Positions 9,915 to 34,112 are shown, counted from the stretch's first letter. The stretch: DNA of 34,114 nucleotides from an uncultured Clostridia bacterium (GCA_963558405.1 CAUWGC010000018.1:1-34114), one strand, 5' to 3'. The notes: generated by a model not told the origin, from the sequence alone. Numbers and translations: made by a program.

Positions 9915-9946
9915 TTTATCGTTAAAAATTATGTATAATAAAACAT

Positions 9947-10289
<343 letters not shown>

Positions 10290-10293
10290 AAAA

Positions 10294-10330
10294 TAAAAAA
10301 AGATTTATTAATCCTAATAAATCTTTTTTA
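10294..10330. terminator. Bidirectional terminator between rnpB and the rluA-family gene
   Basis: AAAAAGATTTATTA / TAATAAATCTTTTT inverted repeat. Confidence 0.7.
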
Positions 10331-22488: not shown

Positions 22489-22673
22489 GAACAAACCTTA
22501 AATATCATTTAAGGTTTCTATTTTACAATACAGAAAAATTTTGTTTTTATATTATAAATTTTTGAGTTATCATTTATTTTATTCTTAAAAATTAACTTCT
22601 TTCAAATCCCGTAAAATTATTTATATAATTATAATAAAATATTTCAATTTTGTTATATGCAAGGAGGAAAAAT

Positions 22674-24035
22674 ATGGATATAGAAAAAATGACATTAGTA
22701 GAATTACGCCAACTAGCAAAAGAAAAAGGATTAAAAAATGTTACTAAATTAAAAAAAGATGAATTAATTGAAATTTTAATAGAAAAAGATAAAATTAACT
22801 ATGAACAACCAGCTGAAGAATCAGAAAATATATCAAAAAGTCCAAATGTTCTAGAAGAGGGACCAAAAGTATATGCACCTCAAGGCATATATAAAGTTAC
22901 TAATACAGAAGATCAAATTATTGAAGGGATTTTAGAGGTTTTACCTGATGGATATGGATTCTTAAGAGGAGATAATTATTTACCTAGCCCAAAAGATGTT
23001 TATATTTCACCAGTGCAAATAAGAAGATTTAAACTAGATACTGGAGATAAAATAAAGGGAATTTCAAGAAATCCAAAAGAAGGAGAAAAATTTCCAGCAT
23101 TAATTTTTGTAGGAGAAGTCAATGGAGAACAACCAGAAAAAGCTTTTAGAAGAAAAAAATTTGATGATCTTGTTCCTATTTATCCTACTGAAAGACTAAA
23201 ACTAGAAACTGAGAATCCAAATGAATATGCAATGAGAATAATTGACTTAATTTCACCTGTAGGAAAAGGACAAAGAGGAATGATTGTTGCTCCTCCTAAG
23301 GTTGGAAAAACCACACTTATAAAAAAGATAGCTAACAGTATTGCTATTAATAATCCAGAAGTAGAATTAATAGTATTACTTATAGATGAAAGACCAGAAG
23401 AAGTAACAGACATGAAACGTTCTATTAAAGGAGATGTAATTTATTCTACTTTTGATGAAGTACCAGATCATCATGTTAAAGTTGCAGAAATGGTATTAGA
23501 AAGAGCAAAAAGATTAACCGAACAAGGAAAAGATGTTGTTATTCTTTTAGATAGCATAACAAGACTTGCTAGAGCATACAATTTGGTTATTCCATCTTCT
23601 GGAAAAACACTTTCTGGTGGTTTAGATCCAAGTGCATTACATAAACCTAAAAAATTCTTTGGAGCTGCTAGAAACATAGAAAATGGGGGAAGCCTTACAA
23701 TTTTAGCATCTGCTCTAATTGAAACCGGAAGTAGAATGGATGATGTCATATTTGAAGAATTCAAAGGAACAGGTAATATGGAAGTTCATTTAGACAGAAA
23801 ACTATCTGAAAAACGAATTTTTCCTGCTATTGATATAAATAAATCTGGAACAAGAAGAGAAGATTTATTATTAAGTCAGAAAGAATTAGAAACTGTATTT
23901 GCATTAAGAAAAGCAATGAATAGTATGCAAGTTTCAGAAATAACTGAACAATTAATAAACCAAATGATAGAAACAAAAAACAATGAAGAATTTATTGATA
24001 AAATGGAAGAACTTTTAAAGAACTATAAAGATTAA
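22674..24035 (+). CDS. rho: Transcription termination factor Rho
   Basis: [44 protein letters not shown]22674 fits RBS AGGAGG. Confidence 0.97.
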
Positions 24036-24062: not shown

Positions 24063-24075
24063 ATACTAAAGACAT

Positions 24076-24154
24076 AAAAAAGAACCTGCCACTTTAACTA
24101 ATAGTCATAAGACTCCTAGTATAACGTCCAAGACGGTAGGTGGCTTAGGTTCAT
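24076..24154 (-). ncRNA. Putative small structured RNA 1 (three-way junction)
   Basis: Own promoter TTGACA(24187-24182)-17-TGnTATAAT. Closing stem GAACCU-AA-GCCAC / GUGGC-AGGUUC followed by a U-run. Confidence 0.7.
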
Positions 24155-24191
24155 AGAAATTATATCACATTAAATAAATAATGTCAAAAGT

Positions 24192-24287
24192 ATATGTGTG
24201 GAAGAAACCCGCCAGGGTAGCTAATGATCAACAGATCCCTAACTCAACGTCCCAAACGAGACCCAGCTCAGATTTTTCCACACATAA
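24192..24287 (-). ncRNA. Putative small structured RNA 2, same fold as RNA 1
   Basis: Own promoter TTGACT(24320-24315)-17-TGnTATACT. Closing stem UAUGUGUGGAA / UUCCACACAUA. Shares CGUY-UNG-GACG hairpin with RNA 1. Confidence 0.7.
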
Positions 24288-24408
24288 TAAGAGTATAACA
24301 CAAGAAAGAAATAAAGTCAAAAGTGACAATTTTATAAAATAAGTAAAAAGATAGAATTGTCAAAGCGAGGTTTTTTTATAAAATTAAATTCACTTTAACA
24401 TATCAAAA

Positions 24409-25475
24409 GATAGCAGAAGAGAGGTAGGTATAGGTATGTAAAAGTGCAAAAAAAGAAATAATAAACATTGCACAAAATCAAAGTTTTGCGCAATAAGATA
24501 TAGGAGTAAAATATATAGGCATACCATTTAATGCCTTACAACCACTTTACCTACAACCCTCTTATAGCTTGCTATCAAATATCGTTTGACTAATGTTATT
24601 ACTTTATATATTTAATATTGTAATAATGTTAGTCTTGTTCCAGATTTTTTATCTTATTTCAATTCATAATTGAATCTTAACTGATTTTATAATTTATCCT
24701 TTATAATTTTATATTCAAATTATTTCTTATATTAAAATTTTACAAAAATCTCTAAAATCTTCAAATCACTATATTTGCCGTATTTTTGCAACAACAAACT
24801 ATATGTCTTTAAAATAAAAACGCCTTAAAATCGATTCTCGTGCGTCGTTTTTTTAGGTATTTTTTCAGTTTTTTATATATTTATATAAGTATAAAAAATT
24901 TGGTTATTTTTTATCTAAAATCTCTCAAACCCAGAATTATCAATATTTTGCTAAAATACTAAACAACAAGTTATATGGCTTAAGTATAAAAATGGCTTAA
25001 AATCGATTCTCGTAAGCCATTATTTTAAATCTTTTAGAGATTACTTTAGCATCTGCAGATAATTATAAAAATTGCATATATATAACTGAAATTTTCATAA
25101 ACAACTCAAATAAATCTAAATTTAATGTTTAGATGAATAATTTGTAAATGGCTTAAATTTGATTTTTGCAAGTTTAAATTATAATAATTAAAATACAATA
25201 TAAATTAAAAACCAAACATTGAAATTTGCAATTAACAAATGTTCGCTTTAAAAATTATATAAATTTAAAATTTTTAATTTACAATTTTTAAAATTTGAAA
25301 ATTTCAAATGCAATATTTTTTAATTTTATTTTTCAATTTAAAAAACTTTTAATTATAAATATTAAATAAATTTTATTTTGTAAAACTTTGCACAAAATTT
25401 TTCTAAGTCTTTTTTATTATATTAAATATAAATCTATAACATTAAAAAATGGCTATCCTTCCCTACTCTACTCAA
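24409..25475. repeat. Structured non-coding element, copy 1
   Basis: Core ATTGCACAAAA-TCAAAG-TTTTGCGCAAT at 24467-24494. Internal CTTAAAATCGATTCTCG units. Inverted arm TTTGCACAAAA near 25387. Homologous to elements starting at 27220 and 32650. Confidence 0.8.
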
Positions 25476-25529
25476 TTTTATTCAAATTAATAAAAAAAGC
25501 CAAATTAGTTATAAATCGGCTTTTCCATT

Positions 25530-25761
25530 TCAATTACTCAATTAATTCACATTTAATTTCTGCTAGCATATCAGGATTTTATCTCAAAAAATATTGTTTA
25601 ATCTCCAAAGAATCTTCTTTGGGCATTGTAGAAGTCTCAAGTAACTTATGTATAAATAATTTTGTATACGGAACTTTATAATCAAGTTTCAATTTTATTA
25701 CTTCTAAAAAAACTTTATAAAATTCTTGAAATGATGAATTTTCACTCATATTTAATTGCAT
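25530..25761 (-). pseudogene. Fragments of unidentified genes ending at a minus-strand terminator (25495-25523)
   Basis: Short open frames (SENSSFQEFYKVFLEV…; NPDMLAEIKCELIE*) with no RBS or start of their own. Confidence 0.4.
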
Positions 25762-25920
25762 CTATGCTTTTTTCTTATTCCTTAACCTTTCCACCAGGTA
25801 ACATATAGAAATCCATGTCATCTCCATAAAATAAAAGAATTTTTGTTTCATCTTCATTATATATAATTGCATACACTCTATATGCAAAATTAAAATTTTC
25901 ATTTTTTTATTTTATATCAC
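25750..25920 (-). pseudogene. NUDIX hydrolase N-terminal fragment
   Basis: DIK*KNENFNFAYRVYAIIYNEDETKILLFYGDDMDFYMLPGGKVKE*EKSIDAIK: start of a Nudix box with two stops, then truncated. Confidence 0.75.
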
Positions 25921-26191
25921 CAAATAAATCATATGTATAAAATACTTCTTTATAAGCAACACCTAATTTATAAACATCCTCTTCATAAGTTGATAATTTA
26001 CCACCCCATTTTTCATATATAGTTCTTGCTTTATGATTGTCTTTTAATACTCCAATCACATATCTAGTTGCGCCATTTTTTATTGCCCATTCTTCAAACA
26101 TTCTCTTAAAGCTACTACCTATTCCTTTTTCTTGAAAATCAGGATCTATATATAATCCAATTAAATCTGCATATTTTACATTATACTTCAT
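25907..26191 (-). pseudogene. GNAT acetyltransferase C-terminal fragment
   Basis: LYIDPDFQEKGIGS acetyl-CoA motif and N.KAR..YEKWG. N-terminal half missing. Confidence 0.75.
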
Positions 26192-26414
26192 TAACGTTAT
26201 CTATATATGATGCTATTTTACTTGTAATTAGCATTATTAAATAGGCAATTACAACTGCAACAGTAAGTTTTATTATTTTATCTAGTGTTAAAGGGCTAGT
26301 ACCAAAATATGATAACGCAAAAGCTTCACCATAATCTGCTATAGAATATATTGTGTTAAAAACAATAGACCATAACAATAATTTTTTAGATATTACTTTT
26401 AACAATTCTTTCAT
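26181..26414 (-). pseudogene. N-terminal fragment of a membrane protein, probably an ABC-transporter TM domain
   Basis: RBS GAGGCGG and two TM helices, then an abrupt end at the GNAT fragment. Confidence 0.5.
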
Positions 26415-26435
26415 TATCTACCGCCTCGTTTTCTT

Positions 26436-26924
26436 TCATTTCTTATATTCATTCTTAATATCATTTATAAATTCAGGTAAATTAGTAAATGTAGCTATAA
26501 CTCCTCTATTTGTAAGTGCAAAAATATCTCTAGTTTTTTTATTTATTTCTTCTTTTACTGCTTTAGGAACTTTAATTGATATTCCTGCTTTTTTATATTC
26601 TTGTTCTATGTATTTTTCTAACGTAGGAAACATATTTTGAATTAAAAAAACGGCTTTTTTTCCAGCTAAATTTCTTGCAAACACAAAGTTATTTGGCTCT
26701 ATTCCTTTTTTAGATTTGATATCATTATATAATTTTAAATATTTATCATATTTAGAAGACATAGGCACGAACCACAATATATTTTTATCAATTTTATCTC
26801 TAAAACAAAAATAAGTTGGCCTTTTTGTACCAGTTTCTTTATTTTACATTAAATGATATTTTGGATTATACTTTTCAATAAATTTATCTTTTATAAAATA
26901 TAATTTTCCTTCTATAATTTCCAT
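26436..26924 (-). pseudogene. Type III toxin-antitoxin toxin, CptN-like, with a nonsense codon at position 27
   Basis: RBS AAGGAG. MEIIEGKLYFIKDKF…LM*NKE…KRPTYFCFRD…WFVPMSSK…FLIQNMFP. TAA at 26846-26844. Upstream repeats and terminator are typical of type III TA loci. Confidence 0.8.
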
Positions 26925-26941
26925 CTTACTCCTTATATAAT

Positions 26942-26964
26942 AAAAAGGGAGTACAAAGACTCCC
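26942..26964 (-). terminator. Terminator between antitoxin repeats and toxin gene
   Basis: GGGAGT-CTTTGT-ACTCCC followed by TTTTT on the minus strand. Confidence 0.8.
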
Positions 26965-26969
26965 AAATT

Positions 26970-27060
26970 TATTCACCAGTGTATTTTCTCTTTGCCAACT
27001 GGGTGGCTGATTAATCGATTGTCTAGGGTATTTTACTCTTTGCCTCCTAGTAGGCAGTAT
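26970..27060 (-). ncRNA. Type III antitoxin RNA (CptI-like), two pseudoknot repeats with about 48 nt period
   Basis: UGCCU-ACUAGG-AGGCA…CCUAG and GCCA-CCCAGU-UGGC…ACUGG, shared linker AAAGAG(U)AAAAUAC. Extended -10 TGcTATAAT at 27083-27075. Confidence 0.8.
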
Positions 27061-27219
27061 TTATTTATATAATAATTATAGCATCTTATATTATTTGAAT
27101 TGTCAACTAGTACAAAATAATTTTCTAAAATTATTATATATAATATTATATGCTATTTTTTAATGTATAATACAAATAATTTTATGATATCAAATGATTA
27201 TATAAAAAACTGTCGCGGC

Positions 27220-27692
27220 ATCAAAGTTTTGTGCAAAAAGGAATAGGAGTAAAATAATAGAACCCTTATCAAGGTCCTACCCACAAGTTCTTGTAACTAC
27301 TAGCCTTAACGGCTTTACTAGCTATTTATTAGCTATCGTTTGACTAACATTATTACTTTATAATTTATTACTTGTAATAATGTTAGTCTAGTCCCAGATA
27401 TTTATTTCTAAAATCAATTTTAAATCAGTTTTATAATTTATCCTTATAATTTTACATCTAAATAATTTTTCTATTTAAAATTTAATTTTATTACTTAATA
27501 ATTTTTATTTCATATTATATTTTATATAAATTTTCCAAAAATCTTCAAAATGCCTATTTCTCTATATTTGCCGTATTTTACAGAAAACAAACTATATGTC
27601 TAATTTATAAAAAACGCTTAGAACCGATTCTCACAAGCCGTCATTTTAAAGGTTTTTGAGGTTTTGTCTTTGGTTTAGACAAAATTTGCAAA
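27220..27692. repeat. Structured non-coding element, copy 2 (truncated)
   Basis: 37 nt identical to copy 3 (ATCAAAGTTTTGTGCAAAAAGGAATAGGAGTAAAATA). 27332-27660 is collinear with 24578-24870. Confidence 0.8.
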
Positions 27693-27737
27693 AAGAAATT
27701 ACGACACAAACCAATGATGGTCTGTGTCATAAAGTTT

Positions 27738-27992
27738 TTATCTTATTCTATCTTTGTATACCAATACCTTCTTAATCTCATCTTCTGTAATTGCTCTATT
27801 ATCAATAGTTATACCTTTATCAGAATAGGCTATTGTTTTAAATGCAATTACTATTTCATAAGTACTTTCTATTGTTTGTCCATCTCTTAAAGTATAAAAG
27901 TATATATACTTATGATTTTTATAATAACTATAGTTCTTATAATTTACTAAACTAGAAAACATTGAATTATCATTCATGTGATGTACCATCAC
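27738..27992 (-). CDS. Hypothetical protein or decayed gene
   Basis: Open frame of 84 codons with a hairpin downstream (27702-27730). Start region looks disrupted. Confidence 0.35.
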   Translation of the reverse strand: MMVHHMNDNSMFSSLVNYKNYSYYKNHKYIYFYTLRDGQTIESTYEIVIAFKTIAYSDKGITIDNRAITEDEIKKVLVYKDRIR

Positions 27993-28048
27993 CTTGCAAT
28001 CTCTACATCTTCTCTAAAAAATATATTTTTTCACCTTTCTGTCACAAT

Positions 28049-28636
28049 CTACATATTAATAATTAAATACATATATCTTCTAACACCATTTATTTTATAA
28101 CAAATTCTATATTTTAAATTAGCACCCCTTGAACTACCCGCAATCTCACTAATTTCTACTGTCACCGTCGAGGTTTCTTTGCTTTGAACAGTTTGAGTTA
28201 CTGAAGCTGATTTTAGAGTTAAGTCTTTACTATTTTCTAGGTTTTCGATTACTCCATCTGTTAATGCAATATCATTATTATTAATAAATTTCATTGTTAC
28301 CGTTAAAGTTCTTTTTGTCAATGCGATTGCTGATATATTTACTTTTCCATTTACTCCAAATGTATCATCATCAAATTTTGAAGTATTTCCAACAGAAAAA
28401 GCATTTATGAAATAACTATCTTTAACTGTAATTAATTTATCATTACTCTGAGCAACTATATCTAAATTCTCTAGTTTAGGTTCTTTATAATCTGATGTTA
28501 CTGTACCATTAATATATAACTTTGAAGACCATAAAGAATATCCTGTTCCCATAGTCATAAAAAGCAATATTATTACAATCAATACAAGACTTACTGAAAT
28601 ATAATGTTTTCTCTTGATTTTGTATTTTTTTCGCAT
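28049..28636 (-). CDS. Secreted beta-rich protein with SipW-type signal peptide
   Basis: Basic N-terminus, TM helix, GTGYSLWSSKLYINGTV. ATG28636 fits RBS AGAGGAG. Confidence 0.7.
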   Translation of the reverse strand: MRKKYKIKRKHYISVSLVLIVIILLFMTMGTGYSLWSSKLYINGTVTSDYKEPKLENLDIVAQSNDKLITVKDSYFINAFSVGNTSKFDDDTFGVNGKVNISAIALTKRTLTVTMKFINNNDIALTDGVIENLENSKDLTLKSASVTQTVQSKETSTVTVEISEIAGSSRGANLKYRICYKINGVRRYMYLIINM

Positions 28637-28646
28637 ATTATCTCCT

Positions 28647-29705
28647 CTAACCATTATTTCTAAATATAAATCTATATGTTATCTCATTACTCATAACGCT
28701 AAACCAAGCTTCTGTGCTTTCTTTTGATTCCCAATATAAAATTGGTTTAAATAGTTCCTCAGATACTTTTATAATCTCTCCAAAGTCTTTAACATCAACA
28801 ATATTTTCTTGTTTAATGTCTACTTTATCTTTAATTTTTACTATCTTATCTTGGCACAATCTTAACATTCTATTTAATTCTTTTCTATAATTATTCTTTA
28901 TTTTATTTATTGCAACCGTATTTCTAGTAATATATTTCAATCCAATTACTAAAATTATAATTAGTATTGTATCTAAACTAATTGCTACAATATTGATATT
29001 TTCATTTTCTTCTTTTGTTTTTGTTACATATGATGTCTCATCTTTATTATTTTCGCCTTTTATCTGTGTCGTTTTTTCGCCTAAGTCAATTGAAACTGCT
29101 GATGTATATTGATTTACTACAGGCTCATCATCAATTTCTGTTTTGACATCAACCTGCAATATTATCATATACGTAGTTTTTAATGTCATGTTCATTTCTT
29201 GTTCAAAATCTGTTACTAATTTGTTTTTATCTTTTAAATTTAGTTCTATTGGCTCTTGAATTGAAATTTTATCTGACATTTGTTTTTGTGTTTCACTATC
29301 AAATAAAACTTCCTCTTTATCCCAAACCTTCTGTTCCTCTCCATCTTTTGTATATACGGCCTGAAGCTTTCCTAATATTTTATAATCATATTCCAAATCA
29401 GAAGCTTTGTTTCCTATATAATCATAATTAATATTCAAATGTATATTATCAATTAAGTCTGTAACATATACTTCATTCATCTGTAACGTTTTTTGATCTA
29501 TATATTTATTATTAATTAAATTAACATCATAATTATAATTAAATTCATTAGTATATGAATAAATTTCCTCTTTTTTTTTAATAGTATTATTTTTTAATAA
29601 GTTTTGAATAAGACTACTAGACAAAACTATAATTAATGACATAATACATATTATATAAAAATATCTAGTAGATTTACGTATTTTAACTTTTTGTCTAGTC
29701 CTCAT
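28647..29705 (-). CDS. Two-TM membrane protein, DUF5305-like, in the SipW operon
   Basis: N-terminal TM, large external domain, second TM, C-terminal V.DF.E..KVS.EL.KPIL motif. Confidence 0.65.
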   Translation of the reverse strand: MRTRQKVKIRKSTRYFYIICIMSLIIVLSSSLIQNLLKNNTIKKKEEIYSYTNEFNYNYDVNLINNKYIDQKTLQMNEVYVTDLIDNIHLNINYDYIGNKASDLEYDYKILGKLQAVYTKDGEEQKVWDKEEVLFDSETQKQMSDKISIQEPIELNLKDKNKLVTDFEQEMNMTLKTTYMIILQVDVKTEIDDEPVVNQYTSAVSIDLGEKTTQIKGENNKDETSYVTKTKEENENINIVAISLDTILIIILVIGLKYITRNTVAINKIKNNYRKELNRMLRLCQDKIVKIKDKVDIKQENIVDVKDFGEIIKVSEELFKPILYWESKESTEAWFSVMSNEITYRFIFRNNG

Positions 29706-29728
29706 ATTCCCCCTCCTTTAACTATATA

Positions 29729-30907
29729 CTATTTTCCTGTATCAACTTCTACCTGCTCGTTTGATTGTATTATATTTAGCCAAATAGCTGGATATCCTAA
29801 ATATTTTACCTTAAAAATAACTTTTCCTAGCACTTGTTCTTCTTTAACACTCTCTTTGTCTTCTGAAGGATTATTATCTCCTTTTGTTGTAAAATAATAT
29901 TCTCCATTTTTTTGCTTTTTCTCAATTACTCTATGTATAACTGTATATCCTTTCATTTGGTATTGTATAATGTCTCCATTGTCAATATCATTTGCATTAC
30001 ACTTTTTTACTATTACAACATCCCCTACATATAATTCTTTTTCCATACTCCCTGAAGCTATTGCTATTGGCTTTATAGGAAATACTCCTATTGTAAACCA
30101 TATTACCAATATTACTAAAACAACTAGCGGAATCGAATTTTTCGGATTTACATTTTCAATTTCCTGTCTTGATTTTATTTCACTATTTTTGCTATTAGCA
30201 TATCTGATATAGAAAAATAGTATTGTTGGAATCGTTGTTTCAATTATTGCAACCATAATCCATGGTGCATTTGGTAATATCGGAGATAGCCATAAATATA
30301 ATTTTGTAAATAATTCATATATACTTGCTGGCTTCCAATCAGATTTCATTGATATATATGAATATAAAACATTTTTAGCAATCAATGGTATAAGATTTTG
30401 ACATATATCTTTTAATGCAAATAATAAAGTTATTTTTGTATTTACATATTTGTTTAATCCTATTTCAATAATTATATATATTAATGATACTAATATAGCT
30501 ATTTCTTTTTTATCATTTTCATAAACATTGTTGATTAATCTATATCTTATATATTCTTTAGAAATTATTACAGTCCCAAACATCCATAAATTTATTAAAA
30601 AGCCTTTAACTGTTGTAAAATATGGATTGTTTCCAAAAGTAATAAATAGTCCTGATATCATATATGTTAATATATATATAATAACTGCTATTAAGATATA
30701 TTGAATAACTTCTTTCTTAATTCTTGATTTTTGATAAGATTTTCCAATAGCAATTTTTAAAAATACAGCTAATGTAATCCAAAATAAAGGATTGATAATA
30801 TATAAATATATAGCATTTATATTAAACACAAGTTTTAAATTTGCTAATAATCCATATATAAGCATCAAAATAATTATTGCTATTGTTATATTTTTTGATT
30901 TTTGCAT
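29729..30907 (-). CDS. Signal peptidase I, SipW/ER type, fused to an N-terminal polytopic membrane domain
   Basis: SGSME…GD, VIHRV (Ser-His dyad), TKGDNN…D motifs in the last ~130 aa. Confidence 0.88.
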   Translation of the reverse strand: MQKSKNITIAIIILMLIYGLLANLKLVFNINAIYLYIINPLFWITLAVFLKIAIGKSYQKSRIKKEVIQYILIAVIIYILTYMISGLFITFGNNPYFTTVKGFLINLWMFGTVIISKEYIRYRLINNVYENDKKEIAILVSLIYIIIEIGLNKYVNTKITLLFALKDICQNLIPLIAKNVLYSYISMKSDWKPASIYELFTKLYLWLSPILPNAPWIMVAIIETTIPTILFFYIRYANSKNSEIKSRQEIENVNPKNSIPLVVLVILVIWFTIGVFPIKPIAIASGSMEKELYVGDVVIVKKCNANDIDNGDIIQYQMKGYTVIHRVIEKKQKNGEYYFTTKGDNNPSEDKESVKEEQVLGKVIFKVKYLGYPAIWLNIIQSNEQVEVDTGK

Positions 30908-30969
30908 ATTTTTCCTCTAAAAAGTCTGATTAAAGGATAATATGAAATATTATCCTTTATTCACTTTAT

Positions 30970-31524
30970 TTATTTTGTATGTACTCCGTGAGTTGGTGTT
31001 ACAGTAACTTCATTTGTTGCTTGTTCATATGTAAAGTTTATTTTGAACTTAGCTGTTGTTGTTGTTGTTGTTGAGTCTTTTTTCCATTTAATTCCAAATG
31101 TCACTGGGCATGTTCCTCCTGCTGCTATAACTTCTAAACCATCTGTTGCAATAGTTGGTGTTGTAATTTCAATTTCAGAATTTGAAAATTCTTTTCCTTG
31201 ATCATCAGTTAATGTGAATCCTGTTAATTTAGCAGGTACAGTACCAGCGTTTTTAATATTTGCAGTTACTGTACAACCATCCCCTGGGTAACCTAATGTT
31301 ACATCAACTGATAATGTATCATTTTTGTTACCTGTAACATTAGCAGTACCATGTGATGATGTATCAACACTTGCTGATAAGAATTTAACATCCCATGTTC
31401 CTGATGCAGTTGCTGTTCCAGAAATTGTTATGTTTGCAGAAAATGCTGCATATCCAACAGCTATTGCTAATAATATTACTATTAAAGCTACCAACAAAAA
31501 GTTTCTTTTTTGCTTTTTCATCAA
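30970..31524 (-). CDS. TasA/CalY-like secreted protein with SipW-type signal peptide
   Basis: LLAIAVGYAAFS signal, PGD….I.N.GT.PA motif, Thr/Gly-rich. First gene of the sipW operon. Confidence 0.72.
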   Translation of the reverse strand: MMKKQKRNFLLVALIVILLAIAVGYAAFSANITISGTATASGTWDVKFLSASVDTSSHGTANVTGNKNDTLSVDVTLGYPGDGCTVTANIKNAGTVPAKLTGFTLTDDQGKEFSNSEIEITTPTIATDGLEVIAAGGTCPVTFGIKWKKDSTTTTTTAKFKINFTYEQATNEVTVTPTHGVHTK

Positions 31525-31719
31525 AAAATCCCTCCTAATATTAAAATCATTTATATTATAACATATTTATATGTATATTACTTTACAATAGCATTACATT
31601 TTCTTTGCATTTGTATTACATTGTTTTAAACTTGTAACAAAATTAAAATATTCCTGTAATGGTTTTTACTGCTATTTTGTGTTATTATGTTATTAAATAT
31701 ATTTGAAAGGAGTTTCTTA

Positions 31720-32145
31720 ATGTTAGAAAATATAGAAAAGCAAGATAATAAAATCTTATTAATTTCTGAAAAAGAACAGCAAGTATTTTTACCATATACA
31801 TTAAAGGAATTAGAAGATTATTTAGAGCAATTTCCTGATGCCTATTCATCAACTGATGATGTTATAAAAAAAGAATTTGTTTTACCTTTAGCTTATTATA
31901 TCTCTCATCCTGCTTTTTCAAGATTCAGAGAAGCATATTCTTTAAGTAGAGATAGAGAAGCAAAACCATTTTTAGAAAGTTTAAGATACGGAATTGACAT
32001 GATGTTTTATGACAAATTAAATCCCGCTATAATTGCTGCTTGTAAATCCCAAGAACAATTATCTAATTATATTGATTGCTTAGAAAATGACAAATTAAAT
32101 GACTTTACTGATTTTGAGATAAGATTTGAAGTAAACCCATTATAA
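31720..32145 (+). CDS. Hypothetical protein
   Basis: RBS GAAAGGAG before ATG31720. Terminator hairpin at 32145-32180. Confidence 0.75.
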   Translation: MLENIEKQDNKILLISEKEQQVFLPYTLKELEDYLEQFPDAYSSTDDVIKKEFVLPLAYYISHPAFSRFREAYSLSRDREAKPFLESLRYGIDMMFYDKLNPAIIAACKSQEQLSNYIDCLENDKLNDFTDFEIRFEVNPL

Positions 32146-32166
32146 AAAACACAAAACAACTAAAAG

Positions 32167-32528
32167 TTATTTTGTGTTTTTAATTAATTTATCTAGTAAT
32201 TCTGTATATGTAATTCTAACAGCTTCAAACAACTTAGGATACATACTTATTTTTGTAAAACCTGGCATTGTATTAGATTCTTCTGCTGATAATATTTCAC
32301 CAACAGTTGATACTTTAATCTCTTTTTCATCTAAAATTGCACATTCTAATTCTCTAGCATTAACACCTTGTTCAACTAAAATTTTGCTATCATATTGTCC
32401 TGCATTTTCTATTGCCATTTTTAATTCTTCTTTATTAGTTGCCTTTTTTACCCCTACAGAAGATCCAGAATTTGATGGTTTAACAAACATTGGAAATTTT
32501 AATTTTTCTGCTATTTTTTCTATATTAA
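32167..32528 (-). pseudogene. ddl: D-Ala-D-Ala ligase fragment with an internal deletion
   Basis: FPMFVKPSNSGSSVGV…ARELECA…GEILSAEE joined directly to NTMPGFT.ISMYPKL. N-terminus and the FY.Y.AKY…RVDF segment are missing. Confidence 0.85.
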
Positions 32529-32530
32529 AT

Positions 32531-32614
32531 AAAAGTTTTATCTACTTCAAGTTCCTCTCCGTATTTCTTTACATCAAACTTTTCTGTATCTTCTACAATT
32601 GTTATTGCATGTGG
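32531..32614 (-). pseudogene. Short internal fragment resembling diaminopimelate epimerase DapF
   Basis: PHAITIVEDTEKFDVKKYGEELEVDKTF resembles the (GN)PH…G..IE…FP segment of DapF. Confidence 0.55.
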
Positions 32615-32649
32615 AATATGAAAAGTGATATCATAGGGGGGTTACTATT

Positions 32650-33530
32650 ATCAAAGTTTTGTGCAAAAAGGAATAGGAGTAAAATATAAAACCATGCAAA
32701 ATGGTCCTCCCTCCAAAATCTCGCTATTCTTTTAGCGAAGCCTATTTCAGCCTATTATTACAACATTATAAAAAGCTCTTAAAATTGATTCTGGAGCTTC
32801 ATTTTTTTTATATTATTCCTGGTTTGATTTTTTTTCATTATTGTAACTACATTTAAAAAAAATTTTATATAACTTTAGATTATTTTATCAAAATTTCCTA
32901 AAACCTTAATTTTAAGTATTTTGCTTGATTTTTTAGACAACAAGTTATATTACCTTTTAATAAAAACGGCTTAAAATCGATTCTCGTGCGTCACTTTTTT
33001 AGCCATTTTTCAGCATTTTTAATAGATGCCTAAAAATCAGCATTTATACTTAATTTTATATATAAAGACTAGTTTTTTAAACTTACACATCTAATTTAAA
33101 ATATATAATAACTTGTTAGATAAAATATTAAAATGTCTTAAAATCGATTTTAATGCGTCTATAATATGAAATTATATTATTGATTAGTAATCTAAATTTA
33201 TATAATTATTATACACAATGATTTTATAAATTTATAATAAAAAATTTATTTAAAAACATTTTAGACAAATGTTCGTTTTAAAAAATTTATATTTAAAATT
33301 AACTTTGCACAAAATTTTAAAAATTTAATTGTTTAAAATCTAATTATAAAAAATTTTTGTAATTTTAAATTTAAAATTTTATTTTTTACTTTTAATATTT
33401 TTATTTTAATTCATTTTAAAATGATTAAAAAAATATCTTTAAATTTTATTTTCATTTTAAAAAGTTATTTTAAAATTTCTATTTTATTTAATTCGCTCTA
33501 AAATAGCCTATTCCCCTATTCCCTACTTAT
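32650..33530. repeat. Structured non-coding element, copy 3
   Basis: Same core start. Three CTTAAAAT(C/T)GATT units, ACAAATGTTCG, AACTTTGCACAAAATTTT (33301) and a GCCTATTCCCCTA block in the same order as copy 1. Confidence 0.8.
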
Positions 33531-33553: not shown

Positions 33554-33880
33554 CTATATGACCTTTAAGTTCTTGTTTGGCTGAATTTGACCAAAATTTT
33601 TACTTAATAATTTGCCTAAACTACTCAAATTATCAAGATTATTGGCTTTTGAATCTACTTGTTCAGCTTGTGTTGCTAATACTTGCTCATAAGTATATTT
33701 CAACATTGCTATCTTTTCTTGTCTTAATTCATCTGTTGCATCACTACCATTAAGCATATATTCAAGATTATAGCCATATAATTCTAAAGCTCTCAAAATT
33801 ATTTCAACTTGTCCATCTAATAAATTCAATTCAACAGAATGAATATTGTTTGTATCAAATTTCTTTTCATAATCTATCAT
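33554..33880 (-). CDS. Hypothetical helical protein, 108 aa, downstream of the recombinase
   Basis: RBS AAAGGAG. Begins 25 nt after the recombinase stop codon. Confidence 0.75.
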   Translation of the reverse strand: MIDYEKKFDTNNIHSVELNLLDGQVEIILRALELYGYNLEYMLNGSDATDELRQEKIAMLKYTYEQVLATQAEQVDSKANNLDNLSSLGKLLSKNFGQIQPNKNLKVI

Positions 33881-33905: not shown

Positions 33906-34112
33906 TTAAGCACAAAATGCCTCTGCATTTGCCATTTTAAATTGTGATAAAGGATGATCTAACATTGCATCCATAACTTCCTGGTCATGCAAGTGTGTAT
34001 ATATTTCTGTAGTATCAATTTGAACATGTCCTAATATTTCTTGAATTGTTCTAATATCTACAATGTAGGCAGATTTTCTCTCTACACCTTCTGGTTTCTT
34101 TGGTCTAGCAAA
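33906..34112 (-). pseudogene. Tyrosine recombinase (XerC/D-like) C-terminal fragment, apparently fused to unrelated sequence
   Basis: VDIRTIQEILGHVQIDTTEIYTH carries the catalytic His and Tyr. The expected HxLRH box just upstream is replaced by FARPKKPEGVERKSAYI. Runs off the window edge. Confidence 0.8.

Follow-up and report, generated by a model that had tools for sequence, protein, structure and literature searches.

What could place three copies of one short sequence, all in the same orientation and each followed by a related stretch of AT-rich noncoding DNA, directly downstream of rho in an uncultured gut clostridium? The question is raised by a 34,114-nucleotide (nt) stretch of DNA (CAUWGC010000018.1, assembly GCA_963558405.1; hereafter the window), which is one whole contig of a 1.575-Mb, 34-contig genome. 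An original prediction, made by a model from this sequence alone, had described the copies as a structured noncoding mobile element linked to a tyrosine recombinase and forming the ends of DNA that integrates repeatedly downstream of rho, and had proposed an integron-like or a new integrative system. Our comparative analysis retains the repeated integration and replaces the system: the first copy belongs to a complete palindromic site at 24468-24493 which is probably the chromosomal dif site, with the elements stacked there by integration, a reading to which we assign a probability of about 80%.

The repeated core is the 17-nt sequence ATCAAAGTTTTGYGCAA, found in the window at 24477, 27220 and 32650, each time on the plus strand as had been predicted; none of 100 dinucleotide-preserving shuffles reached three matches. 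The proposed search of the genome itself was run with up to one mismatch allowed, and no extra copy was found in the rest of the 1.575 Mb. Related AT-rich noncoding blocks lie 3' of all three copies. Those of copies 1 and 3 do contain the predicted ordered series of modules, as seen by repeat finding and a seven-sequence alignment: a head GGAGTAAAATA with a variable hairpin, units based on TTAAAATCGATTCT, then ACAAATGTTCG, an inverted TTTGCACAAAA and an AT-rich tail, with a pyrimidine-rich end CCTATTCCCCTATTCCC closing copy 3. Copy 2 (about 27220-27665) is short, holding only the first part with a single unit, again as foreseen. The three cores, however, differ in kind, since only copy 1 has both arms. 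It is a complete 26-nt palindrome, TTGCACAAAA-TCAAAG-TTTTGCGCAA, in which the left arm TTGCACAAAA (24468-24477) and the right arm TTTTGCGCAA (24484-24493) form inverted arms of 10-11 bp around the 6-bp central region TCAAAG (24478-24483). Copies 2 and 3 (27220-27236 and 32650-32666, both on the plus strand) have the central region and the right arm only, and the sequence to the left of their ATCAAAG is unrelated to the true left arm; to judge from their sequence they look as expected of hybrid sites produced by site-specific integration at dif. This difference between copy 1 and the other two is what the idea of a structured noncoding element as the mobile unit fails to accommodate.

Chromosomal dif sites are recognized by 11-bp arms, a 6-bp centre and a position at the GC-skew shift point (PMC5357621), and the same logic served to define the dif of Legionella (PMC9765430). 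Copy 1 has this architecture, with partially symmetric arms of about 11 bp around a centre within the 6-8-bp range. It also lies where the skew turns, since within the window GC skew passes from positive to negative at about 24 kb, and its per-base cumulative maximum is at 24519. Because the orientation of genes might by itself produce such a switch locally, we turned to long contigs from two relatives. In G014 (contig C1, 400 kb examined) the maximum falls at 298592, against 298621-298646 for the site, while in G019 (contig C21, the entire 225 kb) they are at 98727 and 98756-98781; in all three genomes the maximum is some 30 nt from the site. On its left the site adjoins rho (22650-24035, plus strand; Pfam Rho_RNA_bind, ATP-synt_ab and Rho_N), the last conserved core gene of the left replichore, and the order yabP-yabQ-divIC-rho beside the site is the same in the window and in G017, G019 and G014.

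The complete site is present once in the genome of the window and is conserved among relatives. With up to two mismatches the 26-nt palindrome was found in 84 of the 121 genomes of the family, as a single copy in 83 and as two copies, at contig ends, in one; the reversed pattern, used as a control on the same 121 genomes, gave no match. The 37 genomes without a palindrome match include incomplete metagenome-assembled genomes (MAGs) or variants. Across the family the arms are constant and the 6-bp spacer varies (TCAAAG, TGAAAG, TAAAAG, TGAAAC), and another family of the same order retains a similar site, TTGCACAAAA-TAATAG-TTTTGTACAA. Both the Xer recombinases and an FtsK-type translocase are encoded in the genome: XerD (TIGR02225, 355 bits, cutoff 329.6), a XerC-like protein (246 bits, under its cutoff of 335) and FtsK (FtsK_SpoIIIE, 245 bits, in a frame of 812 amino acids (aa)). 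It is because of the arm architecture, the position at the terminus, the uniqueness, the conserved arms and the Xer/FtsK machinery that we read the palindrome as dif.

The arrays found in relatives repeat the pattern of one full site plus half-sites. Among the loci fetched there were 104 distinct instances of the core, 48 with the head typical of the family and 56 which either have a diverged head or match by chance in unrelated taxa. The head-bearing cores comprise 25 full sites and 23 listed half-sites, or about 21 half-sites after removal of one chance match (a Flavobacterium record) and one near-full site. These share ATCAAAG and the right arm and diverge up to the A of ATCAAAG, their left contexts forming several unrelated groups. 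In the window the boundary is equally sharp, as homology to L115, L111, L035 and L085 begins exactly at 27220 in all four comparisons. The spacer and right arm together occur at least twice, as exact copies, in 22 of the 121 genomes, with a maximum of four and a control count of zero, and in G094 two such copies are 42.9 kb apart on one contig. The junctions of these elements thus fall at the central region of dif, and two claims of the original prediction stand: the boundaries of homology coincide with the core, and the copies mark where integrated DNA ends, this DNA building up in tandem downstream of rho. The shared ATCAAAG was considered as a target duplication, which is ruled out, and we read it as the crossover region.

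The mechanism that we propose begins with mobile DNA whose attachment site would copy the 6-bp central region and the right arm of dif, its left arm being unrelated. Strand exchange within the central region would insert the element; on the rho side a full dif would be rebuilt from the left arm of the host and the right arm of the element, and on the far side a hybrid site would be left, composed of the degenerate left arm of the element and the old right arm. The regenerated dif could then be hit again and again, and elements would stack with the newest nearest to rho. The stack in the window would consist of dif, cassette A, half-site 2, cassette B, half-site 3 and the decayed int end of a temperate phage, cassette B having been inserted after the prophage and cassette A last, at the regenerated dif. 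The acting recombinase would be either a XerC-like integrase of phage origin, together with a 108-aa partner described below, or the XerC-like and XerD proteins of the host.

Phages carrying such an attachment site were found in IMG/VR, where 47 stretches contain the core. Eight of these resemble the family; head and unit are both missing from the remaining 39, which are apparently chance matches. Three records are complete, with direct terminal repeats and a CheckV completeness of 100% (G138, 38,234 nt; G139, 39,038 nt; G140, 36,772 nt), and each has a dif-like attP, in the form of a single half-site in G138 and G139 and of two adjacent cores in G140. The order from the phage site is head, hairpin, one TTAAAATCGATTCT unit, an open reading frame (ORF) of 93-97 aa and an integrase of 323-350 aa; neighbouring genes were scanned in G139, G140 and G137, whose locus matches that of G138, the locus of G138 itself being covered by tblastn only. 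By tblastn the small ORF is a homologue, 35-38% identical, of a 108-aa ORF in the window (ORF108), and the integrase is 36-42% identical to the XerC-like protein of the host. G139 encodes a large terminase subunit, a portal, a major head protein and a holin by comparison with PHROGs, and the Pfam families TerL_ATPase, Phage_portal and Phage_capsid gave nothing in five viral records. Four other viral contigs are prophage ends which abut a full dif together with some host flank. The two cores of G140 (L238, 1945-2017) are about 50 nt apart and have the same left context and the spacers TGAAAC and TCAAAG, both of which occur among host dif sites; this double core may be an adaptation to two host groups.

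In the window, copy 3 adjoins ORF108 (33554-33880, minus strand) and the remnant of a tyrosine recombinase (33906-34112, minus strand), as had been predicted. The remnant represents the C-terminal part, about 50 aa, of a Xer-like phage integrase in a 68-aa frame that runs off the end of the contig. Of the 172 positions of the Pfam Phage_integrase profile it covers 145-171 alone, and it keeps only the box with the catalytic Tyr, the HxxR box being lacking and the sequence upstream of DIRTIQEILGH being unrelated to recombinases. Its best relative is the tail of an intact 327-aa gene in G013 (L036:3744-4727), and the same remnant is also present in G003. ORF108 has no Pfam, NCBIfam or PADLOC family, gave only unnamed clusters in Atlas and, with Foldseek against PDB, no match at E <=0.001; its AlphaFold2 (AF2) model, at a predicted local distance difference test (pLDDT) score of 71, has two long helices, and in phages and prophages this helical-hairpin protein accompanies the integrase that is linked to dif. 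Its distribution is patchy (20 of 121 family genomes), and 17 of its 21 matches are on contigs with a core site, about 12 of them within some 1.3 kb of it and the furthest, in G014, at 6.3 kb. To judge from its placement between int and attP, the protein may act as a factor for directionality or activation. The order rho, dif, block, ORF108, integrase recurs in five MAGs, which along with the phage genomes confirms that copies are tied to tyrosine recombinases elsewhere; as ORF108 and the integrase stand beside a half-site in phages, copy 3 and its two genes can be read as a decayed prophage int-attP module. Two further arrangements were observed. In G013 (L036, 3383-5751) tandem Xer-like recombinases of 345 and 327 aa, with an ORF108 homologue, lie 2.4 kb from dif on its left-arm side and next to a partial inverted block. 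In G048 (C1, 21013-22994) homologues of ORF108 flank one dif site on both sides, a layout which suggests that elements can lie either side of dif.

The cargo between the copies is almost entirely on the minus strand, in agreement with the original prediction. Cassette A (cargo at 25401-27219, minus strand) contains a GNAT fragment (25907-26191), a 77-aa ORF and a broken member of a 181-aa ORF family (26436-26930), and ends in the degenerate left arm ...ctgtcgcggc. Cassette B (cargo at 27666-32649, minus strand) holds ORFs of 84 and 201 aa, a DUF5305 protein, a S26/S24 signal-peptidase-like protein, a 184-aa ORF with a weak, sub-threshold likeness to CARDB and a Ddl fragment (32167-32490), together with a 152-aa ORF on the plus strand, and ends in the degenerate left arm ...ggttactatt. 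A 113-aa cargo ORF (26436-26777) is 94% identical at the amino acid level in G015 and in an unrelated MAG (L123/L124), while Rho is 71-77% identical between the same genomes; at the DNA level the cargo is 91.8% identical over 732 nt and rho 77-82%. Since the cargo is more alike than Rho across genera, it has been shared horizontally. In the other MAG the same cargo gene lies in a cassette of 1,211 nt between two half-sites.

Several features of the cargo were recorded in their own right. The region 26436-27062 (minus strand) has an arrangement resembling a type III toxin-antitoxin locus, in which an RNA-like part (26935-27062) with two direct GGCAAAGAGWAAATAC repeats is followed by a terminator hairpin and then by the 181-aa-family ORF; the latter is broken by an in-frame TAA at 26844-26846 and is intact in G015 and L123. 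A ToxN/AbiQ-like identity for this ORF was considered and then set aside, as neither Pfam nor PADLOC supported it. The Ddl fragment (minus strand) comes from the interior of a D-Ala-D-Ala ligase of foreign origin and has 53-74% identity with the ddl gene of the genome itself (contig C3), and the GNAT fragment (minus strand) is the C-terminal half of an acetyltransferase; both fit decaying imported DNA. The genes for the DUF5305, signal-peptidase-like and weakly CARDB-like proteins follow in a row at 28647-31524 (minus strand) and may form a secreted-fibre or surface-protein operon.

Tandem cassettes, a tyrosine recombinase and a recombination site at each boundary raise again the possibility of an integron. 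Under this explanation an integrase of the 327-aa type and the 108-aa protein would shuffle cassettes by way of the conserved noncoding arm, with no part played by host Xer proteins. Integrons likewise have a tyrosine recombinase and ordered, similarly oriented cassettes, and arrays of up to four sites, a cassette of only 1.2 kb, the uniform orientation of the cargo relative to the site and the position of the recombinase at one end of the array all speak for the comparison. The recombinases, however, score 185-246 bits as XerC/XerD and only 99-104 bits as an IntI-type integron integrase, for which the cutoff is 265; the boundaries are double-stranded core-type half-sites with an unrelated left flank and without a consensus fold, no attC-like folded site having been seen; the insertion point is chromosomal dif; and the cassettes appear to bring their own promoter regions. 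New insertions moreover enter the end that is far from the integrase, the integrase is a mere remnant in the window and in G003 and yet the cargo there looks recently exchanged, and ORF108 is confined to the 20 genomes mentioned above. We consider an integron-like platform improbable.

The closest known kind is instead an array of integrative mobile elements exploiting Xer recombination (IMEXs) at dif, such as CTXphi, VGJphi and TLCphi of Vibrio cholerae or the gonococcal genetic island (PMC5357621). The likeness to these arrays, as far as that source describes them, consists in integration at chromosomal dif through a dif-like attP, conservation of the central region and one arm with divergence of the other, and regeneration of a usable dif so that elements stack in tandem (PMC5357621). 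The target and the logic are thus those of IMEXs and dif-mimicking phages, and the suggestion of a new integrative system falls away. There are nevertheless differences from these arrays. Here the hosts are uncultured low-GC gut Clostridia, each element has a conserved noncoding arm, and some cassettes, down to 1.2 kb, have no integrase. IMEXs by definition use the Xer proteins of the host, whereas the vehicles here include tailed phages of 36-39 kb which encode their own XerC-like integrase beside attP; cassettes A and B, having no integrase, agree with that definition in a formal sense.

Other Xer-related systems resemble the present one in part. The Legionella element LME-1, with its dif/XerL system, is also a dif mimic which integrates beside the terminus and so reveals the dif of its host, and we count as a further likeness that a modified downstream site modulates the stability of the element (PMC9765430). 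LME-1 uses the enzyme of a single-recombinase host; here XerD and a XerC-like protein are present and the phages add a third paralogue. In XerS/difSL and XerH/difH the gene for a Xer-type recombinase is linked to its site (PMC5357621), as here, where unlike in those systems the linked recombinase is patchy, phage-borne, convergent with the site and about 0.25-1.3 kb from it. The pdif modules of Acinetobacter are likewise small modules bounded by Xer-type sites and thought to move between replicons; they are described on plasmids, between inversely oriented full XerC/XerD sites, while the present modules are chromosomal and have directly repeated, half-degenerate sites and a long arm.

That arm is the noncoding block. 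Block 1 (24494-25400, plus strand) has head, hairpin, two TTAAAATCGATTCT units, ACAAATGTTCG and an inner TTTGCACAAAA, and is 80-84% identical to blocks of G015. Block 2 (27237-27665, plus strand), the short one, is 93.7% identical to G015 (L026:15528-15954) and 92% identical to a block in L121 which directly follows a full dif; its homology to all relatives ends at 27632. Block 3 (32667-33530, plus strand) has head, hairpin, three units, ACAAATGTTCG, TTTGCACAAAA and the CCTATTCCCCTATTCCC end, and is 76-77% identical over 717-881 nt to blocks of other genera (G003, G008). No ORF of at least 60 aa and no plausible smaller one was found inside blocks 1 and 3, and an ORF starting at 25388, on the outer edge of block 1, looks spurious. 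The blocks are strongly polar with respect to the site. Of the full sites, 29 have enough flank to be scored, and every one of them has one forward unit or more within 1 kb on the right-arm side, where there are 69 forward and 11 reverse units in total as against none forward and three reverse on the left, and ACAAATGTTCG is present in 24 of the 29 flanks. With a stricter 17-nt unit pattern (up to two mismatches) four of the five matches in the genome of the window are within blocks; there are a few unit-motif matches on other contigs, and the two that were inspected, at C3:5110 and C2:112093, lie inside coding sequence and look like chance. Blocks in the window and next to host dif measure 0.45-0.9 kb, those of phages and of the shortest cassettes about 0.2-0.4 kb.

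Phage attP, the 1.2-kb cassette and host dif are all accompanied by the block. Such a distribution agrees with a part of the attachment site that acts in cis, as its arm or as an accessory region, a role which we propose tentatively from sequence comparison and which presumably has its parallels in the attP arms of lambda or the accessory sequences of cer and psi. On the minus strand the head hairpin and a U-rich tail look like a terminator for cargo transcribed toward the site. The hairpin units of the original prediction survive in part: units of the AATGGCTTA...TAAGCCATT type do form a stem, whereas in the remaining units it is the sequence that is conserved, or there is an 18-nt palindrome, CTTAAAATCGATTTTAAG, in place of a covarying stem.

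A different account of the blocks would make them noncoding RNA genes, or stacked terminators or insulators, which have been repeated by duplication and homologous recombination. The variable head hairpin with its U-rich tail would suit it, as would the modest enrichment of head stems of at least 7 bp (30 of 55 copies against 33% of shuffles), the runs of A and T that flank the units and the mosaicism of the blocks between genomes. RNAalifold, however, found no consensus structure in the 55 heads, most units conserve sequence and not pairing, and Rfam 15 gave a single gathering-score match in the whole window, to RNase P (9946-10294), and nothing in the blocks at E <=1. Promoter and terminator scans found promoter-like sites in the AT-rich DNA no more often than in shuffles. 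Above all, duplication would leave unexplained the identical ATCAAAG breakpoints with many unrelated left contexts and the free phage genomes with a half-site, and we regard this account as quite improbable.

It should also be asked whether the site serves merely as attB for a family of phages and cassettes and is near the terminus by chance, host XerCD having its true dif at another place. The dif call was made by architecture, position, uniqueness and machinery and not by likeness to a known dif sequence, the phages bring their own integrase, and nothing similar was found among deposited phage and plasmid records, in which block 3 had no blastn match. The skew maximum some 30 nt from the site in three genomes does not fit, nor does a single-copy site with arms conserved throughout the family and a similar site in another family of the order. 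G014 and G019 moreover have the site without a second core site to mark an integrated element, and a site widely conserved without integrated elements is more likely to be functional for the host; we judge the attB-only explanation very improbable. A transposon or miniature inverted-repeat transposable element is ruled out, there being no transposase and only one copy of the full site, and a scan of the window found no tRNA near the sites as an integration target.

The reading of the palindrome as dif with elements stacked beside it has its own difficulties, among them the basis of the dif call just mentioned. All of the evidence is comparative and comes from MAGs, which are often broken at these repeats. 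The left arms of the half-sites bear no likeness to the true left arm, and we have to assume that a second recombinase monomer binds to them. It also counts against a tidy cassette model that no site marks the end of the homologous cargo module in G015. Finally, a block accompanies dif in G014 and G019, where scans of 400 kb and 225 kb, respectively, gave no second site, so that the most recent element cannot account for the block purely by its arm, except if the distal site was lost; the block may be a host feature that mobile elements copy. An extension along these lines would make the dif of this order a composite locus and not a bare site of 28 bp, with a conserved, polar noncoding arm of 0.6-0.9 kb, marked by TTAAAATCGATTCT units, an extra core-type half-site and GGAATAGG/CCTATTCC brackets, as its host-functional partner; phages and tiny cassettes without an integrase would copy the arm, and dif would be an integron-like platform for gene capture, served in trans by XerC-like phage integrases and by the ORF108 family as a new helical-hairpin cofactor. 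Taken as a whole we think this extension rather unlikely.

Between rho and dif there are two further elements, at 24070-24158 and 24195-24291 (both on the minus strand), which are paralogous, resemble small RNAs (sRNAs) and have a GC content above that of their surroundings. Each is downstream of a strong minus-strand sigma-70-like promoter (12/12 and 10/12), and they share a closed three-way fold (z -2.9 and -3.3). Neither has a significant Rfam match (TD-2, E 0.29), and the 271-nt region that holds them has no homologue in 40 relatives.

What is new in this system is the presence at dif of tailed phages with their own XerC-like integrase and a small partner, of integrase-less mini-cassettes and of a large conserved noncoding arm. 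A limited literature search brought up neither a tailed phage that targets dif nor an array of cassettes at dif in a member of the Firmicutes, and the present elements indicate that integration by mimicry of dif extends beyond the filamentous or tailless phages of Proteobacteria. The parts of the system are now defined, namely a compact attP (core, head and one unit), a XerC-like integrase, a helical partner of 93-108 aa and a dual-core phage. For a large, uncultured family of gut Clostridia with small genomes, the probable dif site and with it the replication terminus have been identified, and this terminus emerges as a hot spot for the exchange of accessory genes between genera.

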